Sequence record: DRR723986_11201
Reading direction: 5' to 3' (one strand)
DNA length: 62,686 nt
In this document: positions 30,326 to 49,490 of the stretch, one piece after another
Layout of the letters: every line of letters starts with the position of its first letter
Numbering within the stretch: position 1 is the stretch's first letter
Notes under the pieces: generated by a model
What the model saw: only the letters and a program-made list of their open reading frames with translations
The model's database searches: none
Told to the model about the DNA's origin: nothing
Position numbers and translations under genes: made by a program

Positions 30326-31348
30326 CTACTGGAACCTTATCCGCGGATCAACCACGGCGACCAGCAGATCGGAGAGGATATTGCCGATCAACAGCAGCAG
30401 GCTACTGATCAACACCACCCCCATGACCACGGGATAGTCCCGATCGAGCACCGCGGTGAGCGCCAGCAGGCCGAAGCCGTCAATATCGAAAATGGTTTCG
30501 ATCAGGAAGGACCCGGACACCAGCAGGGTAATGTTCTGGCCGAATGTGGTGGCAATAGGGATCAGTGAATTACGCATCGCATGCCGGGTCACCGCTCGCT
30601 TGAAGGAGACGCCCTTGGCCACCGCCGTGCGCATATAGTCCGCAGCCAGGTTGTCCATCAGGTGGTTCTTGAGCAGCATGGTCACCAGGGCGAAGGCGCC
30701 CACCATATAGCAGATCAGGGGCAGCACCGAGTGCTGCAGGAGATCCAGCGCCTGCTCACCGAACTCTTTGCTGTGGAAGTCGTAACTCACGAAGCCCCCC
30801 ATCGGGAACCATTCCAGCCGCACCGAGAAGTAGAGCAACAGCAGTGAACCCAGGGCATACCCAGGGATGGCGTAGCCAATAAAAATCAGGACCGACGTGG
30901 CGTTATCAACCACCGTGCGGTGCCGGATAGCCTTGACCACGCCCAGCGGGATACAGACCACATAAGTGAGCACCAGGGTCACCAGCCCGTAATAGAGCGA
31001 GACCGGGAAACGGTCCACGATCACATCCCAAACGGGTTCGTTGTAGCGGTAGGAGCTACCGAGGTCACCCGACAGCACCTTGCCCAGCCACTCACCATAG
31101 CTTTGCAGGAGGGGCTTGTCGAAGCCGTAGTATTCCTTGAGTTTCTCTAGCTGGGCCTCAGAAATCGCCATGCCCTGACCCGCCGCCTGACTGCTGATGC
31201 CCGTCGCGGCGTCCATCTGCTGCGCCTCCATGATGGCACGCTCAAGCGGGCCACCAGGCACCAGGCGGGTGATAGTGAAGACGATGATCGTGATACCGAG
31301 CAGGGTCGGCGGAATTAGCAGCAGGCGCCTGAGGAAGTAATCGCGCAC
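30326..31348 (-). CDS. Peptide ABC transporter permease (YejB/OppB-like)
   Basis: YFLRRLLLIPPTL, GDLGSSY, AVAKG, RDYPVV, DPRIRF. Confidence 0.93.
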   Translation of the reverse strand: MRDYFLRRLLLIPPTLLGITIIVFTITRLVPGGPLERAIMEAQQMDAATGISSQAAGQGMAISEAQLEKLKEYYGFDKPLLQSYGEWLGKVLSGDLGSSYRYNEPVWDVIVDRFPVSLYYGLVTLVLTYVVCIPLGVVKAIRHRTVVDNATSVLIFIGYAIPGYALGSLLLLYFSVRLEWFPMGGFVSYDFHSKEFGEQALDLLQHSVLPLICYMVGAFALVTMLLKNHLMDNLAADYMRTAVAKGVSFKRAVTRHAMRNSLIPIATTFGQNITLLVSGSFLIETIFDIDGFGLLALTAVLDRDYPVVMGVVLISSLLLLIGNILSDLLVAVVDPRIRFQ

Positions 31349-32551: not shown

Positions 32552-33520
32552 ATGTCCGGCGAACACCTCACCGCCATCAACGCCATGATGGCGCAAATGG
32601 CCCGCTCGGTTATCGGTCAGGAAGAGGTGGTTCGTACCCTCACCCTGGCCATGCTGTGCAATGGCAACGTGCTGCTGGAAGGACTGCCGGGGACCGCCAA
32701 AACCCGCTCGATCAAAACCCTTGCCCGCGTGCTTTCGGCACGCCTGGGCCGCATCCAGTTCACCCCTGACCTGCTGCCCTCCGATGTTACCGGTAACGAG
32801 ATTTACCAGGACAACCAGGGCAGGTCGGAACTGTGTTTCGAGCCCGGGCCCATCTTCAGCGAGCTGGTGCTGGCTGATGAGATCAACCGTGCGCCGGCCA
32901 AGGTCCAGTCGGCCCTGCTGGAGGCCATGGAAGAGCGCCAGGTCACCGTCGCCGGCAAGACCTACCCGCTGCCCGAATTGTTCATGGTGCTCGCGACCCA
33001 GAATCCGATCGAACAGGAGGGCACCTACCCCCTGCCGGAAGCCCAGATGGACCGCTTCCTGATGAAAATCCGGGTGGACTACCCCGACACCAGCGCAGAG
33101 CTGGATATCGTGCGCATGCTGCAGGCCGAGGAAGGCAAGGCCGGACCGGAACTGACCATGATCGGCCAGGAGCACATCTTCGCGGCCCGCGAGACTATCC
33201 AGCGGATGTCGCTGACCCCCGCCATCGAGCAATACCTGGTCGACCTGGTGATGGCGACCCGCCAGCCCGGTAGCTACAGCGACAAGCTGGGCAACTGGAT
33301 CGATACCGGTTCCAGCCCCAGGGCCAGCATCGCCCTGCACCGCACAGCGCGGGCCAGTGCCTGGCTGGCGGGGCGTGATCATGTCACTCCCGAAGATGTG
33401 CGCGCCGTACTGCACCCGGTGATGCGCCATCGCTTGATCCTCAGCTATGACGCGCTGGCGGATGGGGTCGGGCCGGACGAGGTTATCGACGAACTGGTGC
33501 AACAGGTCGCCGTGGCCTGA
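32552..33520 (+). CDS. moxR: MoxR family AAA+ ATPase
   Basis: LLEGLPGTAKT, RIQFTPDLLPSD, LADEINRAPAKVQSALLEAM, ATQNPIEQEGTYPLPEAQMDRF. Confidence 0.96.
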   Translation: MSGEHLTAINAMMAQMARSVIGQEEVVRTLTLAMLCNGNVLLEGLPGTAKTRSIKTLARVLSARLGRIQFTPDLLPSDVTGNEIYQDNQGRSELCFEPGPIFSELVLADEINRAPAKVQSALLEAMEERQVTVAGKTYPLPELFMVLATQNPIEQEGTYPLPEAQMDRFLMKIRVDYPDTSAELDIVRMLQAEEGKAGPELTMIGQEHIFAARETIQRMSLTPAIEQYLVDLVMATRQPGSYSDKLGNWIDTGSSPRASIALHRTARASAWLAGRDHVTPEDVRAVLHPVMRHRLILSYDALADGVGPDEVIDELVQQVAVA

Positions 33521-33525
33521 AACTG

Positions 33526-34464
33526 ATGGCCGATCCGCACCAGGACGACGTCTACACCAGCCTCAATGCGCTGGTCCGCCTGCGCTACAGCGCCCACGGC
33601 TTCAGCTATCTGCCCCAGCAGCCGGTGCGCTCCCTGCTGGCCGGGCGCAAGCGCTCGCGGCTGCGCGGGCGCGGCCTGGACTTCGACGAACTGCGCCACT
33701 ACCGTCCCGGGGATGACATCCGCACCATGGACTGGCGGGTAACCAACCGCACTGGCAAACCACATGTGCGGGTCTATACCGAAGAGCGGGACCGGCCGGT
33801 GATCGTGGTGGTAGACCAGCGCCTGCCGATGTTCTTCGGCAGCCGAAGCAAAATGAAATCAGTGGTAGCAGCGGAAGTTGCCGCGTTGACCGCCTGGCGG
33901 GTGATCGGCGTCGGTGACCGGGTGGGCGCAATCCTGTTCAACGATGAGCGCCAACTGGAGTTCCGCGCCACCCGCAACCAGAAAAAGGTCATGGGCTGGC
34001 TGGGCGAACTGGTTGCCATGAACAATGATTTGTCGGTCGCGCCCGGCCACCAGAGCCGCCCCGAGGCGCTGGCGGAGGCACTGGCACTGCTCGAACGCAG
34101 CATCGGCCACGATTACCTGGTGATTATCGTCTCCGACTTTTTCGGCTGGAATGACAAGGCACTGCTCGCCCTGCGTCGGATGCGGGAGCACAATGACATC
34201 ATCTGCGCCCTGGTCTATGACCCGCTGGAAAAGAATATTTCGGCCGCCAACCGACTGATCGTGAGCGACGGCCGGCTGCAACTGGCGCTGGATCCGGAAA
34301 AGCAGGGCCTTGGCGAACGCTTTGAAGCCAGTTTCGAGAGCGCGGTGGCAACCGTGGAAAGTGCCCTGCGACGCTATGAAATCCCCATGCTGCCCGTACA
34401 TACCACCGCGCCGGTGACTGAGCAGCTGCGGGAAAAACTCGGCGGCGCCGGGAGATTCGGGTGA
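33526..34464 (+). CDS. DUF58 domain protein
   Basis: GRGLDFDELRHYRPGDDIRTMDWRVT, YTEER, MFFGS, IVSDF. Confidence 0.93.
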   Translation: MADPHQDDVYTSLNALVRLRYSAHGFSYLPQQPVRSLLAGRKRSRLRGRGLDFDELRHYRPGDDIRTMDWRVTNRTGKPHVRVYTEERDRPVIVVVDQRLPMFFGSRSKMKSVVAAEVAALTAWRVIGVGDRVGAILFNDERQLEFRATRNQKKVMGWLGELVAMNNDLSVAPGHQSRPEALAEALALLERSIGHDYLVIIVSDFFGWNDKALLALRRMREHNDIICALVYDPLEKNISAANRLIVSDGRLQLALDPEKQGLGERFEASFESAVATVESALRRYEIPMLPVHTTAPVTEQLREKLGGAGRFG

Positions 34465-34967
34465 GCGCACCGGCCCTGCCGCCCAATTTTGGCAACTACG
34501 CCCTGGGTGAAATGGTGGAAGTTATCGCCCCGCCGGGAATCGACTGGCTACCACAAACCCCGGGCTGGTACCTGGTACTGGCTATTGGGCTGCTATTCGC
34601 CTGCCGCGCGGGCTGGCGTGCACTGCGCAAATGGTATCGCAATCGCTATCGCCGGGAAGCGCTGAAGCGCCTGCGCGAACTGGAGCATCGCGGTGAAGAC
34701 GGCTTTGCCCTGGCACAGAGCGCCAACACCTTGCTCAAGCTCACTGCCATGGCTGCCAGCACCCGGGCACAGGTTGCCAGCCTCACCGGGCAGGACTGGG
34801 TCGCCTGGCTTAATGCCCAGTGCCCGGCTGCGGTGTTCGATGAACAGCCGGCCCGGTTATTGGCAGAGGGCAGTTATCGCGCCATTCCCGTGGACCCCGC
34901 CACCCGGGCATCCCTGTTCAGCGCCATGGCACGGTGGATCAGCGGGCACCGGGACCCGCAGGCATGA
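34461..34967 (+). CDS. DUF4381 domain protein
   Basis: P..IDWLPQTPGW, TM helix, NRYRREAL, ASLTG..W; position in the MoxR/Bat operon. Confidence 0.85.
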   Translation: MSAPALPPNFGNYALGEMVEVIAPPGIDWLPQTPGWYLVLAIGLLFACRAGWRALRKWYRNRYRREALKRLRELEHRGEDGFALAQSANTLLKLTAMAASTRAQVASLTGQDWVAWLNAQCPAAVFDEQPARLLAEGSYRAIPVDPATRASLFSAMARWISGHRDPQA

Positions 34968-35956
34968 TTGAACTCAGCCACCCCTGGGCCCTTACCCTGA
35001 TGTTCCTGCCGGTGCTGATGCGCCTCGTGCCTGCGTATAGGGAGAGTCGCGACTCGGTCAAAGTGCCCTTCTTCGACAAGCTGGTGGAACTGAGCCAGGA
35101 ACGACCGGAGACTGGCGCCATGATCCTCAGGCGCAACCGGCTGCAGCGGGTGCTGGTGGCCGTCATGTGGCTGGCGCTGGTCCTGGCGGCCGCGCAACCG
35201 CAATGGATCGGCCCGCCCATCGAACAACAGAAGTCCGGCCGCGACCTGATGGTAGCGGTAGACCTCTCCGGCTCGATGGACACCGCCGATTTCACCCTGC
35301 CCGATGGCAGCGCAGTGGATCGGCTGCAGGCGGTGAAATATGTGCTGGCAGAGTTGGCTGACCAACGCCCTTCAGATCGACTCGGGCTGATCGTCTTTGG
35401 CAGCGCGGCCTATCTGCAGGCGCCCTTCACCGATGACCACGCTGTGTGGTCCAGCCTGCTGACCCAGACCGAAATCGGCATGGCCGGCCAGAGCACGGTG
35501 TTCGGTGATGCCATCGGCCTGTCGATCAAGCTGTTCCTGGAGTCCGATTCCGACAACCGGGTACTGATCATTCTCACCGATGGCAACGATACCGGGAGCG
35601 TGGTACCGCCGGTGGATGCGGCCAAGGTGGCTGCGACCCATGCGATCCGAATCTATACGATCGCCATCGGCGACCCGGCGGCGGTTGGCGAGGAGGCGCT
35701 GGACATGGACACCATTCGCCGGGTGTCGGAGGTGAGCGGTGGCCGGGACTTCCAGGCCCTGGACCGGGCCCAGCTGGAGTCCGCCTACCGTACAATCGGC
35801 GAACTCGAACCCGACATCTACGAGACCGTCAGCTTTCGGCCACGGCAGAGCCTGCACTGGGTACCGCTGGCGATCGCCTCAACCTTGTTCCTGCTGTTCC
35901 ACAGCTGGAACGCCTGGCGCACCTGGCGCGGCTGGAGACAGGCCGATGTGGCCTGA
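34964..35956 (+). CDS. VWA domain protein (BatA-like)
   Basis: MIDAS DLSGSM, DRLGLIVFG, T.FGDAIG, LTDGND; ATGA overlap. Confidence 0.92.
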   Translation: MIELSHPWALTLMFLPVLMRLVPAYRESRDSVKVPFFDKLVELSQERPETGAMILRRNRLQRVLVAVMWLALVLAAAQPQWIGPPIEQQKSGRDLMVAVDLSGSMDTADFTLPDGSAVDRLQAVKYVLAELADQRPSDRLGLIVFGSAAYLQAPFTDDHAVWSSLLTQTEIGMAGQSTVFGDAIGLSIKLFLESDSDNRVLIILTDGNDTGSVVPPVDAAKVAATHAIRIYTIAIGDPAAVGEEALDMDTIRRVSEVSGGRDFQALDRAQLESAYRTIGELEPDIYETVSFRPRQSLHWVPLAIASTLFLLFHSWNAWRTWRGWRQADVA

Positions 35957-37577
35957 CGCTGCGGTCCTCGCGCATTTTCATTTCCTGCGGCCGGAGTGGG
36001 GGCTGATCCTGCTCCCCTGGCTGTTTATTGTCAGCGTGCTGAACCACCGCGCCGAGCGCCAGGACCAGTTTGGTGACATCATCGCGCCGCATTTGCTCGA
36101 ACACCTGCGGGTGTCGCGCTATCAATCACGCTGGTTCAATCCGCGCCGTTTTACCCAGGTGCTGCTTATCCTGATCACCATCGTGCTCATGGGACCAAGC
36201 TGGCGCCAGCAGCCATCCCCCCTCAGCCAGGACGAGTCGGCGATGGTAATCCTGCTGGATGTCTCCAACACGATGAACCAGCGCGACGTGCAACCCAGCC
36301 GCCTGCAGCGTGCCCGCCAGAAAATCGGCGAGTTGCTGGCCATGCGGCCCGACAAGCAGGCGGCACTTATCGTTTATGCGGGCACCGCGCACACCGTACT
36401 CACCCTTACTGCCGATCGCGAGATCCTCGACCAGTACCTGGCCGCCATCGAACCGCAGATCATGCCCCGCCCGGGCAAATTCCCCGAGTATGCGCTGGCG
36501 GAGATCGACACCGTGCTGCGAGACAGTCCTGCGCCGGCCAGCGTTGTGCTGTTTGCCGATGGTGTGGGCAGCAACAGTGCCGCACAGTTCAGCGCCTTCT
36601 TCGCCAGCCGGCCCCACCAGCTGCTGGTAGTTGGCGTGGGCAGCGAAACAGTGGGCGAGAACCAGGCGCCACTGGAACGCCGCGCCCTCAACGCTCTGGC
36701 CAGCGACAGCGGCGGCAGTTTCATCGAGCTCACCGTGGACGACGCGGACATGCGCAAAGTGAACCGGCGGGTCGACAGCCACTACGTGGTGCGCGAAGAC
36801 AGTGCCCTGCCTTGGCTGGATAGCGGCTATCCACTGATATTCCCGGCCATGCTGCTGTTCCTGATGTGGTTCCGCAAGGGCTGGACACTGACCTGGGCCT
36901 GGGTGCTTGCCCCTCTGTTGCTGGCGGTACAACCCGGCCCGGCAACTGCCGACGAGACGGAACCGGAGCCAACGGAAACTCACTGGTTCGCGGACCTGTG
37001 GCTTACCGGCGACCAGCAGGGACGCCTGATGATGCAGCTCGGGCAGTACCGCGAAGCCGCTGAACGCTTCGATGACCCCTTATGGAAGGGTATGGCCTTT
37101 TACTACGCCGAGGAGTTCATGCTGGCGGCGGAATATTTCTCCCGTTCGGATACAGACCCGGCACTGTTCAACGAGGCCAATGCTCGCGCCCATGCCCGGG
37201 ATTATGTGCGGGCCGTGCAACGCTATGACCGCCTGCTGGCCCGTAACCCTGAGTTCCCCGGCGCCGCGAATAACCGCCAGCGCGTGCAGGCCCTGATCGA
37301 CGAGATCAACCGGATGAGCGAGAGCCAGCAACAGGAGGCGGGGGTCAGCAGCGAGGAGGTGGAGCTGGGCAGTGAGGACGCGATACCCGCCCAGGGTGCC
37401 GAGGAGCTCAACTGGCAGACCGCCGAACTGGTGCAATTCAGTGCCGAGGAAATCCTGCAGGATCCCGCCACCGCCGAGATGTGGCTGCGCGGTGTGCAGC
37501 AGGATCCCTCGAGCTTCCTGGCGATTAAGTTCAGCATGCAGTTACAGCGGCGCGAAGACGGCGGGGAGGCGCCATGA
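35946..37577 (+). CDS. VWA + TPR domain protein (BatB/BatC-like)
   Basis: HFHFLRPEW, DVSNTM MIDAS, FRKGW, DLWLTGDQQG, TPR-like helices; start ATG 35946. Confidence 0.9.
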   Translation: MWPDAAVLAHFHFLRPEWGLILLPWLFIVSVLNHRAERQDQFGDIIAPHLLEHLRVSRYQSRWFNPRRFTQVLLILITIVLMGPSWRQQPSPLSQDESAMVILLDVSNTMNQRDVQPSRLQRARQKIGELLAMRPDKQAALIVYAGTAHTVLTLTADREILDQYLAAIEPQIMPRPGKFPEYALAEIDTVLRDSPAPASVVLFADGVGSNSAAQFSAFFASRPHQLLVVGVGSETVGENQAPLERRALNALASDSGGSFIELTVDDADMRKVNRRVDSHYVVREDSALPWLDSGYPLIFPAMLLFLMWFRKGWTLTWAWVLAPLLLAVQPGPATADETEPEPTETHWFADLWLTGDQQGRLMMQLGQYREAAERFDDPLWKGMAFYYAEEFMLAAEYFSRSDTDPALFNEANARAHARDYVRAVQRYDRLLARNPEFPGAANNRQRVQALIDEINRMSESQQQEAGVSSEEVELGSEDAIPAQGAEELNWQTAELVQFSAEEILQDPATAEMWLRGVQQDPSSFLAIKFSMQLQRREDGGEAP

Positions 37578-38641
37578 ACACCGGCAGCCGCCTGCTGGCG
37601 ATCCTGGCACTGCTGCTGCCAGCCTGGGTTCAGGCCATGACCCCCGCCGACCTGGTTCGCGACGGCAAGCTGGAACTTGCCACGACCCTGCTGCCGGAGA
37701 GCAACATCGTGCCCGGTCAGAAACTGCGCCTGCAGGTGGCGGTCGCTACCGCGACCTGGTTCACCGGCGGCACCCGCATCGCCATTCCTGAGGTGCCGGG
37801 CCTGGTCATCCTGCAGACCGAGCAGTTCGCCAGCAATGCCAGCGAGCGGCGCGGGGACGCGAGCTGGATCGTGCAGCGCTGGACCCTGGATATCTATCCC
37901 CAGCGGGCGGGCGACTTCACGGTGCCTCCACTGCAACTGACCGTGAACGTCAACGCCGGTGAGGCAGGCAGTATCCGGGGAGAAGTCAGCGCTCCCGGGA
38001 TCAGCTTCAGCGCCGTGGTACCGGAGGCACTGGCGGACACCGACAGCTGGGTGGCGGCGCCGGAGTTTTCAGTCAGCCAGCATTTCGATCGCGAGCTCAG
38101 CGGGCTGGCCGTGGGTGACGCCTTCGAGCGGACCGTCAGCTTCCGAGCCCGTGACGTGATGGCGATGATGCTGCCGACACTCCCCGCGCAACCGCTGACT
38201 GGCATTGCTGCCTACCCCCTGCCGCCCACCCTGGACAACCGAAGTAACCGCGGCGAAGCAATCGCGGAGCGGGTCGAGCGGATCAGCTACGTGGCGCAGG
38301 AAGCCGGCACCTATCATCTGCCGGCCATGTATTTTCACTGGTGGAACAGCAACAGCGGCGAACTGGCGCTGGTGTCGGTTCCGGCCGTGGACATTGTGGT
38401 GGGAGCAGGGACATCTGCAGCGAGCGGCGACCGCAACCAGCGGCGCCTGTTGACCGGTGTGCTGGGCCTGCTAAGCCTGGCAGTGCTCGCGCTGCTGCTG
38501 CGCTGGCTGCACCCCCGCTTACCCGCGCTGCCCCGGCAGCGGTTCCAGGCGCTGCCGCAACGTCTGCTGGCACTCTGGCACAGCCTGCGTCAGCCCGCCC
38601 TGCCGGTGAAACTCAACCCCGATAGTAGCGCTGGGGACTGA
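37574..38641 (+). CDS. BatD-like protein (short form)
   Basis: Signal peptide, IYPQRAGDFTVPP, VGDAFERT, FHWWN, C-terminal TM; last gene of the operon. Confidence 0.8.
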   Translation: MNTGSRLLAILALLLPAWVQAMTPADLVRDGKLELATTLLPESNIVPGQKLRLQVAVATATWFTGGTRIAIPEVPGLVILQTEQFASNASERRGDASWIVQRWTLDIYPQRAGDFTVPPLQLTVNVNAGEAGSIRGEVSAPGISFSAVVPEALADTDSWVAAPEFSVSQHFDRELSGLAVGDAFERTVSFRARDVMAMMLPTLPAQPLTGIAAYPLPPTLDNRSNRGEAIAERVERISYVAQEAGTYHLPAMYFHWWNSNSGELALVSVPAVDIVVGAGTSAASGDRNQRRLLTGVLGLLSLAVLALLLRWLHPRLPALPRQRFQALPQRLLALWHSLRQPALPVKLNPDSSAGD

Positions 38642-39856: not shown

Positions 39857-40372
39857 ATGCCGACCCCTTCAAACCTGCCGACAACCATCAGCCTGATCGG
39901 TATGCCCGGTGCTGGCAAAAGCACGGTGGGGGTTATCCTGGCCAAACTTGCCGGGCTGGCCTTCGCCGATACTGACCTGGCCATCCAACTGCACGCCGGC
40001 AATACCCTGCAGGAAATCCTCGAGCGCGAGGGTTACCTGCACCTGCGAGAGCTTGAGGAAAGTATCCTGCTGTCGATCGACCTGTCCCATTCGGTGGTCT
40101 CAACCGGGGGCAGCGTGGTCTACAGCCCGGTGGTCATGCAGCGACTGCAGGCGGCAGGGCCGGTCGTCTATCTGCAGGCTGACCTCGACACCCTGGAGCA
40201 CCGGGTGGCCGCCGCTCCCCTGCGCGGCATAGCCAGCAGTCACGCCCAGAGCTATGCCGATGTCTACGCCGAGCGAACGCCGCTTTACCAGCGCTACGCC
40301 GACATCACCGTGGACGCCACCGCCGGCAGTGCCGATACGGTTGCCGAGCTGATTCGTCAGGCACTGGGTTGA
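39857..40372 (+). CDS. aroK: Shikimate kinase-like P-loop kinase (stand-alone)
   Basis: LIGMPGAGKST, DTD, STGGSVV, ERTPLY; not next to aroB. Confidence 0.8.
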   Translation: MPTPSNLPTTISLIGMPGAGKSTVGVILAKLAGLAFADTDLAIQLHAGNTLQEILEREGYLHLRELEESILLSIDLSHSVVSTGGSVVYSPVVMQRLQAAGPVVYLQADLDTLEHRVAAAPLRGIASSHAQSYADVYAERTPLYQRYADITVDATAGSADTVAELIRQALG

Positions 40373-40391
40373 CCTGCGGACAGCGCCGGAC

Positions 40392-40405
40392 GTGTCCGCG
40401 GACAC
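40392..40405. promoter_or_regulatory. Perfect 14-bp palindrome, candidate enhancer (UAS) for a sigma54 activator
   Basis: GTGTCCGCGGACAC, ~80-90 nt upstream of the predicted sigma54 start; extra half-site GCGGACA at 40376-40382. Confidence 0.5.
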
Positions 40406-40456
40406 CGCCACACGCTGAAAATCCCAGGTTTCAGGCAAAAAAGCGCGCAGCCCGGC

Positions 40457-40472
40457 TGGCACGGGTTTTGCT
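40457..40472 (+). promoter_or_regulatory. Sigma54 (RpoN) -24/-12 promoter
   Basis: TGGCAC-GGGTT-TTGCT, an exact match to the TGGCAC-N5-TTGCW consensus, in an intergenic region. Confidence 0.8.
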
Positions 40473-40482
40473 CCAGCATAGA

Positions 40483-40574
40483 TGGGGAGCCCGTCCCGGC
40501 GCGCAGCTCAGGGAAGAGCCAACGGCGCAGCGGCCCGCCGTGCTGCCAGGCCAGGGAAGCGGGCGGGCTCCCCA
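40483..40574 (+). ncRNA. Putative sigma54-dependent small RNA with AGGGAA motifs
   Basis: Starts at the predicted TSS; 14-bp closing stem TGGGGAGCCCGTCC/GGGCGGGCTCCCCA; internal hairpins GCTC-AGGGAA-GAGC and ACGGCG/CGCCGT; second AGGGAA at 40553. Confidence 0.6.
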
Positions 40575-40644
40575 CCCCCTCACCCGCGGTTTTTCTGGCG
40601 CAATGCGGCGCAGGTTTTTGGTACAAATCGTCATAAATTTTTAA

Positions 40645-40673
40645 TTGACTCCCCCACAGCGCTTAGCGATATT
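40645..40673 (+). promoter_or_regulatory. Candidate sigma70 promoter of the 73-aa protein gene
   Basis: TTGACT-N17-GATATT preceded by an AT-rich UP-like tract. Confidence 0.55.
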
Positions 40674-40713
40674 TGCCGCAGGATGACCTTGTTAAATCAT
40701 CGGAGGGTGATTT

Positions 40714-40935
40714 ATGGGTGAACGCAACCAGGAACCCGCAACATCGGACAGCATGGACGATATGTTCGAGCCGGTTCTGAGTGACATGATGGACGATGAC
40801 TTCGAGGAGCTAAGGCCGATTTCTACCGAGAAACAGCGCCTTGCGGAGAAGCGTCGTCGCGCTGAGCAGCGGCTTGAGGAAAAGCGCCTGCGAGACCAGC
40901 TCGGCTGTTACGACCTCGAGTTCGACGACTTCTGA
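40714..40935 (+). CDS. Small acidic/charged protein, PA3496-family-like
   Basis: GGAGG RBS; KRRRAEQRLEEKRLRDQLG.YD motif after an acidic N-terminus. Confidence 0.75.
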   Translation: MGERNQEPATSDSMDDMFEPVLSDMMDDDFEELRPISTEKQRLAEKRRRAEQRLEEKRLRDQLGCYDLEFDDF

Positions 40936-49413: not shown

Positions 49414-49490
49414 TGGTCGGTGTGAGAGGATTCGAACCTCCGACCCCTTCCTCCCGAAGGAAGTGCGCTACCAGGCTGCGCCACACACCG
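49414..49490 (-). tRNA. tRNA-Pro (anticodon CGG)
   Basis: Reverse complement CGGTGTGTGGCGCAGCCTGGTAGCGCACTTCCTTCGGGAGGAAGGGGTCGGAGGTTCGAATCCTCTCACACCGACCA; cloverleaf, TTCGAA T-loop, encoded CCA. Confidence 0.97.

Follow-up and report, generated by a model that had tools for sequence, protein, structure and literature searches.

The DNA analysed here is a stretch of 62,686 nucleotides (nt) from sequence record DRR723986_11201, referred to below as the window. Between a gene for a shikimate-kinase-fold protein and a gene for a 73-amino-acid protein of the PA3496 family, it carries an exact match to the sigma54 promoter consensus followed by a 92-nt domain enclosed by a single long helix. An earlier examination of this DNA (the sequence-only reading) had proposed that promoter and domain specify an undescribed small RNA (sRNA) with sites for the global regulator CsrA. 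We find that the element is a conserved structured RNA of ~90-100 nt in Halieaceae, and the features that make up the locus are as follows.

40378 to 40404, strand not assigned: candidate upstream activator sequence, a putative site for a bacterial enhancer-binding protein (bEBP), with GGACA at 40378, the palindrome GGACGTGTCC at 40388 to 40397 and a further GGACA at 40400.
40457 to 40472, + strand: sigma54 (-24/-12) promoter TGGCAC-GGGTT-TTGCT, an exact consensus match.
40483 to 40574, + strand: structured RNA domain of 92 nt, closed by helix P1.
40483 to 40496 (TGGGGAGCCCGTCC) with 40561 to 40574 (GGGCGGGCTCCCCA), + strand: closing helix P1, 14 base pairs (bp), one of them G.U.
40506 to 40519, + strand: hairpin H1, GCUC-AGGGAA-GAGC, with CAGGGAAG in the loop as a CsrA-type site.
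40522 to 40527 with 40536 to 40541, + strand: hairpin ACGGCG/CGCCGU, equivalent to H2 of the family; the family's ACA-N-GGA-N-GU loop is lost in the window copy.
40552 to 40559, + strand: second CAGGGAAG motif, adjoining the 3' strand of P1, with no evident stem of its own.
40575 to 40644, + strand: spacer, with TTTTT at 40590 to 40594, 15 nt past P1, and no clear terminator hairpin.
40645 to 40673, + strand: sigma70-like promoter of the downstream gene, TTGACT-17-GATATT, from a promoter scan.
40679 to 40685, + strand: CAGGATG, in the leader of the downstream gene, which also contains CGGAGG.
40694 to 40713, + strand: predicted leader hairpin AAAUCA-UCGGAGGG-UGAUUU, directly before the ATG; its loop contains or adjoins GGA and the Shine-Dalgarno sequence.
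40714 to 40935, + strand: 73-amino-acid open reading frame (ORF) for a putative envelope integrity protein of the PA3496 family, matching NF046101 at 48 bits (cut-off 22).

The components that the sequence-only reading had described within the RNA are present: the 14-bp closing helix with its one G.U pair runs from 40483, and GCTC-AGGGAA-GAGC, ACGGCG/CGCCGT and the second CAGGGAAG lie at the positions listed.

Related loci were collected by searching contigs, one genome per species, with the 73-amino-acid protein, and the best 80 of 90 relatives (51-78% identity) were retained. Their labels are Halieaceae, Haliea, Halioglobus, Seongchinamella, Parahaliea or unclassified metagenome-assembled genomes. 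A seed alignment was made with MAFFT, which is blind to structure, from 53 of 63 sequences chosen for a long closing helix; ten whose length, offset or helix call was an outlier were left out (L023, L028, L030, L031, L032, L033, L035, L049, L054 and L076). RNAalifold applied to this alignment gave the closing helix alone, and three inner hairpins were added by hand. The resulting covariance model, R1, was run over 81 sources (the 80 loci and the window), and 64 of its hits were gathered into a second alignment (A3), which is fitted to the model and therefore leans towards it.

On the + strand, R1 matched 65 of the 81 sources at E<=0.001 and 67 at E<=0.01. Scores at the stricter threshold ranged from 36 to 96 bits, and the maximum on the - strand was 28.3 bits. 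The window gave a single match, at 40482-40575 on the + strand (39.4 bits, E 9.5e-5). At E<=1 there was no match in L017 and L068, which have short flanks, or in L050, L070, L071, L076, L078 and L080. Divergent or weak loci (L050, L070, L071, L073, L075 and L078-L080) nevertheless keep, as judged by eye, a sigma54-like site, a closing helix and two to five AGGGA hairpins, the sigma54-like site of L079 lying at the edge of the stretch read.

The proposed fold is borne out by covariation. In the 53-sequence MAFFT alignment, 89.6% of cells are paired, compared with 30-47% when partners are slid, 19 of the 21 pairs change on both sides, and the observed values were reached by none of 500 shuffles. 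The sequence-only reading had suggested looking in related intergenic regions for a conserved promoter and structure, and both were found there, the structure with this covariation. P1 shows compensatory changes at all 11 of its pairs and is paired in 96-97% of cells in both alignments, a figure that is partly due to selection because the seed sequences were picked for a long closing helix; the compensatory changes are not explained in this way. H1 shows compensatory changes at three of three pairs. Across the 64 sequences of the model-fitted alignment, pairing reaches 97.3% in P1, 86% in H1, 88% in H2 and 83% in H4. The window sequence does not form the H4 stem of the family in A3, and the window copy is degenerate: it has kept the promoter, the upstream element, the closing helix and two motifs, and has lost the central ACA-GGA hairpin.

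The element is single-copy and confined in its distribution. R1 found one match per genome in five of five relatives, and one match each in at least 77 of 151 genomes sampled from the family, a count that is a lower bound because stricter filters were used and 27 candidates were scored per genome. In an order-level sample, 3 of 151 genomes gave a match, and all three also belong to the family sample. A genomic repeat, which the sequence-only reading had named as something that would speak against its proposal, is contradicted by this single-copy occurrence in all five relatives and in every R1-positive genome of the family sample. Nor does the RNA belong to a described family. Rfam 15 gave no match in the window at the gathering threshold or in 40300-40800 at E<=10, and none to the RNA of ten strong loci at E<=1; the CsrB, CsrC, RsmX, RsmY and PrrB_RsmZ families showed no homology match to the RNA in these scans. 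As far as Rfam goes, the earlier description of the RNA as undescribed holds. A search of open-access full text and bioRxiv likewise turned up no sigma54-dependent CsrA sponge and no study of sRNAs in Halieaceae.

The promoter named by the sequence-only reading is an exact consensus match in the window and is conserved in relatives, with a spacer that is free to vary. TGGCAC-N5-TTGCW occurs exactly once in the 62.7-kb window, and shuffled versions contain it 0.12 times on average; because at least one match occurs in 12 of 100 shuffles, the window promoter by itself is only suggestive. Its conservation says more. In 62 of the 80 loci the ORF is preceded, at a distance of 237-394 nt, by a sigma54-type pattern with the hexamers kept and the N5 spacer variable; two of the 18 loci that lack it have less than 135 nt of flank. 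Among 64 homologous elements, the consensus is matched without mismatch in 42, with one mismatch in 21 and with two in one. In one complete genome, 18 exact consensus sites were counted, as opposed to one in a reversed-pattern control.

The RNA domain is placed with precision relative to this promoter. The first base of P1 lies 12-15 nt past the -12 C in all 64 elements, that is, at approximately +1, in agreement with the predicted start near 40483 from which the sequence-only reading had the domain begin. A separate helix search showed that in most loci a long closing helix starts 10-15 nt after the -12 GC and encloses 84-107 nt. The presence of RpoN and CsrA was assessed by profile search of five related genomes that carry the RNA, and RpoN (PF04552) was found above the cut-off in all five. 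Synthesis of the RNA would be expected to depend on RpoN, an expectation founded on the conserved promoter.

Upstream of the promoter lies a second conserved element, which in the window falls ~55-80 bp before the -24 element. In the interval -120 to -20 of 63 loci, GGAC[AG]/[CT]GTCC motifs average 3.33 (0.32 in a control interval, 0.54 in shuffles), and 59 of the 63 have at least two GGACA/TGTCC-type motifs, compared with 1 of 63 controls. The motifs peak 55-100 nt before TGGCAC and often take the form of GGACAYGTCC palindromes or of repeats with a 10-11-nt period. Among the 18 consensus sigma54 sites of the complete genome examined, only the one preceding this RNA carries three such motifs. 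The tandem GGACA/TGTCC element is probably an activator site, as its conservation and position suggest.

We also considered which activator might act there. Neither the window nor the 3-kb flanking stretches of the 80 loci contain a gene for an activator with the GAFTGA motif. PilR, which is reported to bind tandem (C/G)TGTC repeats, is not claimed as the activator. An exact search of five genomes for GGACRYGTCC-N0-2-GGAC returned four places and seven in the reversed control; owing to the degeneracy of the motif, the loci of the RNA were not among them. On a Haliea salexigens contig (G004:C20; L092:1383-1525), the upstream element was noticed a second time, as CGCGGACACGTCCGGACGCGTCCGCGG, ~110 nt before a sequence resembling a sigma54 site, TGGCACAGTCTCTGCT. 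The latter points towards a small gene that looks Cro/YdaS-like by eye, the surrounding ORFs resemble, again by eye, those of an integrative conjugative element, and a CsrA-like paralogue lies on the same contig, ~18 kb from the element copy.

The GacA/UvrY box, with consensus TGTAAG-N6-CTTACA, is typical but not universal upstream of Csr/Rsm sRNAs. No GacA-box-like site with up to three mismatches was found within 9 kb of the element (the nearest is at 30774), and matches in the window occur at chance level. In the five genomes, the model PRK11107.1, taken to represent BarA, gave no match over its strict cut-off but long partial matches, the best at 403-496 bits; this result is not used as evidence on GacS/BarA.

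The loops of the RNA carry a recurrent motif. Across 64 elements, A.GGA occurs 3.27 times per element on average (0.09 in the reverse complement and 0.60 in shuffles) and CA.GGA.G 2.38 times (0.02 and 0.07, respectively). CA.GGA.G is present in all 64, and ACA.GGA.GT, which forms the H2 hairpin CUACA-N-GGA-N-GUAG, in 56, the window copy not being one of them. In the family the motifs are arranged as CANGGANG in the loops of covarying hairpins, together with one junction, so that the CsrA-type hairpin-loop sites of the sequence-only reading are a property of the family consensus. The N positions of CA-N-GGA-N-G vary among A, C, G and U, whereas CA, GGA and G are kept.

The number of sites also varies. 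Elements normally have three or four, and up to ~10 occur; the window copy has two CA.GGA.G motifs, one of them in a clear hairpin loop. The 'minimal two-site' sponge of the sequence-only reading is consequently an apt description of this degenerate copy, but not of the family. At the other extreme, a hairpin unit of 15 nt, CGGCCAGGAAAGGCC, is repeated 7.2 times in tandem in L032:2746-2853, with ~10 GGA sites inside one closing helix; sponge RNAs show modular expansion of this kind.

For CsrA, the consensus from in vitro selection of ligands (SELEX) is RUACARGGAUGU, in which ACA and GGA do not vary and a hairpin loop is the preferred setting for GGA (PMC4347634). The family motifs correspond, as judged from their letters and placement, to the CsrA/RsmA recognition pattern. 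CsrA itself (PF02599) was found above the cut-off in all five related genomes, as a canonical 63-amino-acid protein, and the RsmZ, RsmY and CsrB models of Rfam gave no match in these genomes, an absence that counts as weak evidence because the models are lineage-specific.

From these observations, we favour, with some confidence, the view that the element is a protein-sponge RNA of the Csr/Rsm type that is placed under sigma54 and an enhancer-binding protein rather than GacA. A bEBP encoded elsewhere would bind the tandem GGACA/TGTCC element ~80-125 bp before the start and switch on RpoN-RNA polymerase at TGGCAC-N5-TTGCW, a step suggested by the conservation of both sites. Transcription would begin at the first base or bases of the long G+C-rich closing helix, whose position is the observed part of this step. 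The helix would then hold a set of hairpins whose loops, with one junction, display CANGGANG, the central hairpin being CUACA-N-GGA-N-GUAG; for this step covariation and conservation speak directly to the structure and the motifs. Finally, the RNA would titrate CsrA dimers at high-affinity CsrA/RsmA-type sites and so free CsrA-controlled mRNAs, as CsrB, RsmY and RsmZ do.

Several observations weigh against this view. Binding of CsrA is predicted from the likeness of the motifs. The window element (78% G+C) has a minimum free energy of -56.9 kcal/mol on the + strand and folds no better than its shuffles (z = +0.50), while the - strand has z = -2.06; its R1 match is among the weakest, and one of its two motifs is without a stem of its own. 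Part of the pairing in P1 reflects the choice of seed sequences, as noted above, and a candidate inner helix, P2 (A3 columns 15-19 with 82-87), was rejected because only 55% of cells are paired. No universal intrinsic terminator was found among the 64 loci, and in the window a scan of the spacer after P1 found no terminator-like site on the + strand. In all loci with an R1 match, moreover, the RNA lies upstream of a PA3496-family gene in the same orientation, and this constant linkage makes read-through or a leader role possible.

The last two points lead to the best-surviving alternative, in which the sigma54 promoter drives the PA3496-family mRNA and the GGA domain is the 5' end of a leader of ~230 nt. 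Such a leader would exert CsrA-dependent control in cis, over stability, Rho termination or translation, in concert with the GGA-containing Shine-Dalgarno hairpin, and might in addition be released as an RNA derived from the 5'-untranslated region. This alternative agrees with a sponge on CsrA binding and differs from it on the transcript. The upstream neighbour of the RNA varies among loci while the downstream gene does not, and most loci are without a terminator, so that the RNA may also serve as the 5' portion of a transcript that continues into the gene. In the window, folding indicates only weak structure 3' of P1. Sigma54 consensus sites matching at 10 or more of 11 positions also precede PA3496-family genes in 3 of 28 loci from same-order genomes that gave no R1 match (at -255 in L138, -261 in L132 and -122 in L141, where ~0.2 would be expected by chance, by estimate), so that the gene may be under sigma54 control in some lineages. 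The leaders of L138, L132 and L141 are AT-rich, are without GGA hairpins and have different upstream repeats.

The region next to the gene bears on both views. The leader block ATCATCGGGAGGTGAT, which includes the GGA-containing ribosome binding site, is kept with two or fewer mismatches in 64 of 79 loci, and because its conserved Shine-Dalgarno hairpin contains GGA, the PA3496-family leader may itself be a CsrA target. The hairpin fold in the window is not significant (z -1.14). The sequence-only reading had pointed to CAGGATG and CGGAGG in this leader as possible CsrA sites; both are present, and control by CsrA would follow from them only by prediction. Against a leader role, the gene has promoter-like sequences of its own. 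The sigma70-like promoter that the sequence-only reading assigned to it was recovered by the scan, and in 74 of 79 loci the homologous block, TTGATTTACTC followed by N-GATATT, shows no more than two mismatches; its median position relative to the ATG is -75, and AT-rich palindromes precede it. Both the sequence and the length of the stretch that separates RNA from gene vary, and more than 100 nt are inserted in L037 and L060; the GGA domain lies at least 130-200 nt from the ribosome binding site and forms a closed, self-contained fold from +1; and a U-run follows the closing helix at once in about a third to half of the loci (a run of four or more T within 20 nt of P1 in 21 of 64, and five or more T per 8-nt window in 30 of 64). 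The ~10 sites of L032 also fit titration better than control in cis. On balance, we hold the leader role to be a possible but not a probable explanation. The independent transcript that the sequence-only reading had thought likely is favoured by the promoter-like block that the gene has of its own; T-runs in only 21 of 64 loci and the constant linkage to the gene point the other way, and such a transcript may or may not be made.

Further observations concern the same stretch. AT-rich palindromes of the type GATAAAATATTTTTATC stand just upstream of the TTGATTTACTC block in window positions 40620-40713 and in the equivalents of L001-L080, and the leader sequence AAATCATCGGGAGGTGATTTATG is almost invariant in L001-L080; from this pattern of conservation, the PA3496-family gene may have an operator and a ribosome binding site that is subject to regulation. 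Halioglobus-like loci (for example L039-L045, L047 and L053) share a conserved block, TGCGTAAAACTGACAAAAC...TTGTTC, ~20-60 nt past the RNA and before the promoter block of the gene. A literature search for PA3496 yielded nothing relevant.

Less likely still is that the RNA has a partner other than CsrA, whether protein or RNA, or another function altogether, with the GGA loops as its recognition elements. The commonest loop, AGGGA(N), is indeed narrower than the generic A(N)GGA, and a dedicated activator site suggests a specialised circuit. However, a variable N flanked by fixed CA, GGA and G is precisely what marks sites of the CsrA/RsmE type, 56 of 64 elements retain ACA and GGA of the SELEX consensus, CsrA is encoded by the relatives, and the three Rfam models found no other candidate sponge there. 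We therefore regard a different partner as unlikely. That a sigma54-like pair fell fortuitously beside a G+C-rich palindrome, a repeat or the terminator of the upstream gene is very improbable: the matches in shuffled windows and the unexceptional fold of the window copy would allow it, but the element lies above chance because promoter, helix and motifs are conserved in related genomes, with the upstream element and the compensated helix retained across at least 64 loci of many genera, it is single-copy, and the promoter stands between the upstream gene and the helix.

If the element is a sponge RNA, a wider proposal can be put forward, as speculation that we think doubtful. A dedicated sigma54 bEBP, whose regulon may be this one promoter, might feed the Csr network in Halieaceae in place of, or beside, GacS/GacA; the sponge and a CsrA-repressed PA3496-family gene might form a conserved two-part module; and an ancestral leader driven by sigma54 might, through its 5' end, have given rise to the sponge.

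The remaining features of the window that were recorded are the following.

32552 to 38641: BatA-BatD/VWA/MoxR-like operon.
39857 to 40372, + strand: 171-amino-acid shikimate-kinase-fold ORF; of the NCBIfam models, one for homoserine kinase matches best (170 bits, short of its cut-off of 197), and AroL scores 106 bits.
49417 to 49490, - strand: tRNA gene.

The sequence-only reading had called the upstream gene aroK. That name is not sustained by the homoserine-kinase model as its best NCBIfam match, and the gene stands apart from any aroB. A homologue of this kinase is the upstream neighbour in 53 of the 80 loci and is absent in 27. In the Halioglobus-like clade, a conserved block raised the suspicion of an upstream tRNA; none was found.

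Gammaproteobacteria set the activity of the global regulator CsrA mainly through Csr/Rsm sponges, which in known cases are driven by GacA/UvrY-type regulators. If the proposal is true, a sponge driven by sigma54 and a bEBP would constitute a differently wired input into the Csr network, and the RNA would be the first candidate regulatory RNA for the abundant marine OM60/NOR5 (Halieaceae) clade. The analysis supplies a covariance model for annotation and, as a handle for tracing the activator and the signal behind it, a promoter and an upstream element that are both defined.

Among known systems, the proposed logic matches that of CrcZ and CrcY, where a two-component bEBP and RpoN together direct synthesis of a sponge RNA, and this RNA titrates a global repressor of translation. 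These Pseudomonas RNAs are sigma54- and CbrB-dependent protein sponges (PMC4063720). CrcZ differs from the Halieaceae RNA in titrating Hfq/Crc via A-rich motifs rather than GGA hairpins, and in its activator site and gene context; the two are not homologous. GlmY, Qrr and NrsZ are each served by a bEBP with a dedicated or small regulon. They too are sigma54-dependent sRNAs: GlmY, a protein decoy in Enterobacteria, through GlrR; Qrr, in Vibrio, through LuxO; and NrsZ, in Pseudomonas, through NtrC (PMC4253122). Their partners (RapZ, or Hfq with base pairing) and their structures are other than those considered here, and they have no array of GGA loops. The flaA mRNA of C. jejuni, whose leader binds CsrA and which also titrates CsrA (PMC4894983), offers a parallel for a possible dual role. 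Unlike leaders of the flaA type, the Halieaceae RNA groups its sites in a 5' domain that is closed and distant from the ribosome binding site, and a separate promoter-like block serves the gene's own region. For P. stutzeri, the part of PMC8249394 consulted places RpoN boxes at nifLA and pslA, and not at rsm genes.

The closest anatomical counterparts are RsmX/RsmY/RsmZ and CsrB/CsrC. Like the Halieaceae RNA, these are non-coding and small, present A(N)GGA several times over in their hairpin loops and junctions, show modular gain and loss of GGA hairpins, and occur in genomes that encode CsrA. They share no sequence or structure homology with it. The Halieaceae RNA, for its part, is contained as a whole inside a single long helix whose first base falls at the predicted +1, follows a sigma54-type promoter and a GGACA/TGTCC element with no GacA-box-like site nearby, has no regular terminator hairpin, and has CsrA sites that are predicted from motifs. 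The RNA thus resembles CsrB, RsmY and RsmZ in anatomy and differs from them in fold, promoter type and upstream element, and it stands outside any Rfam family.

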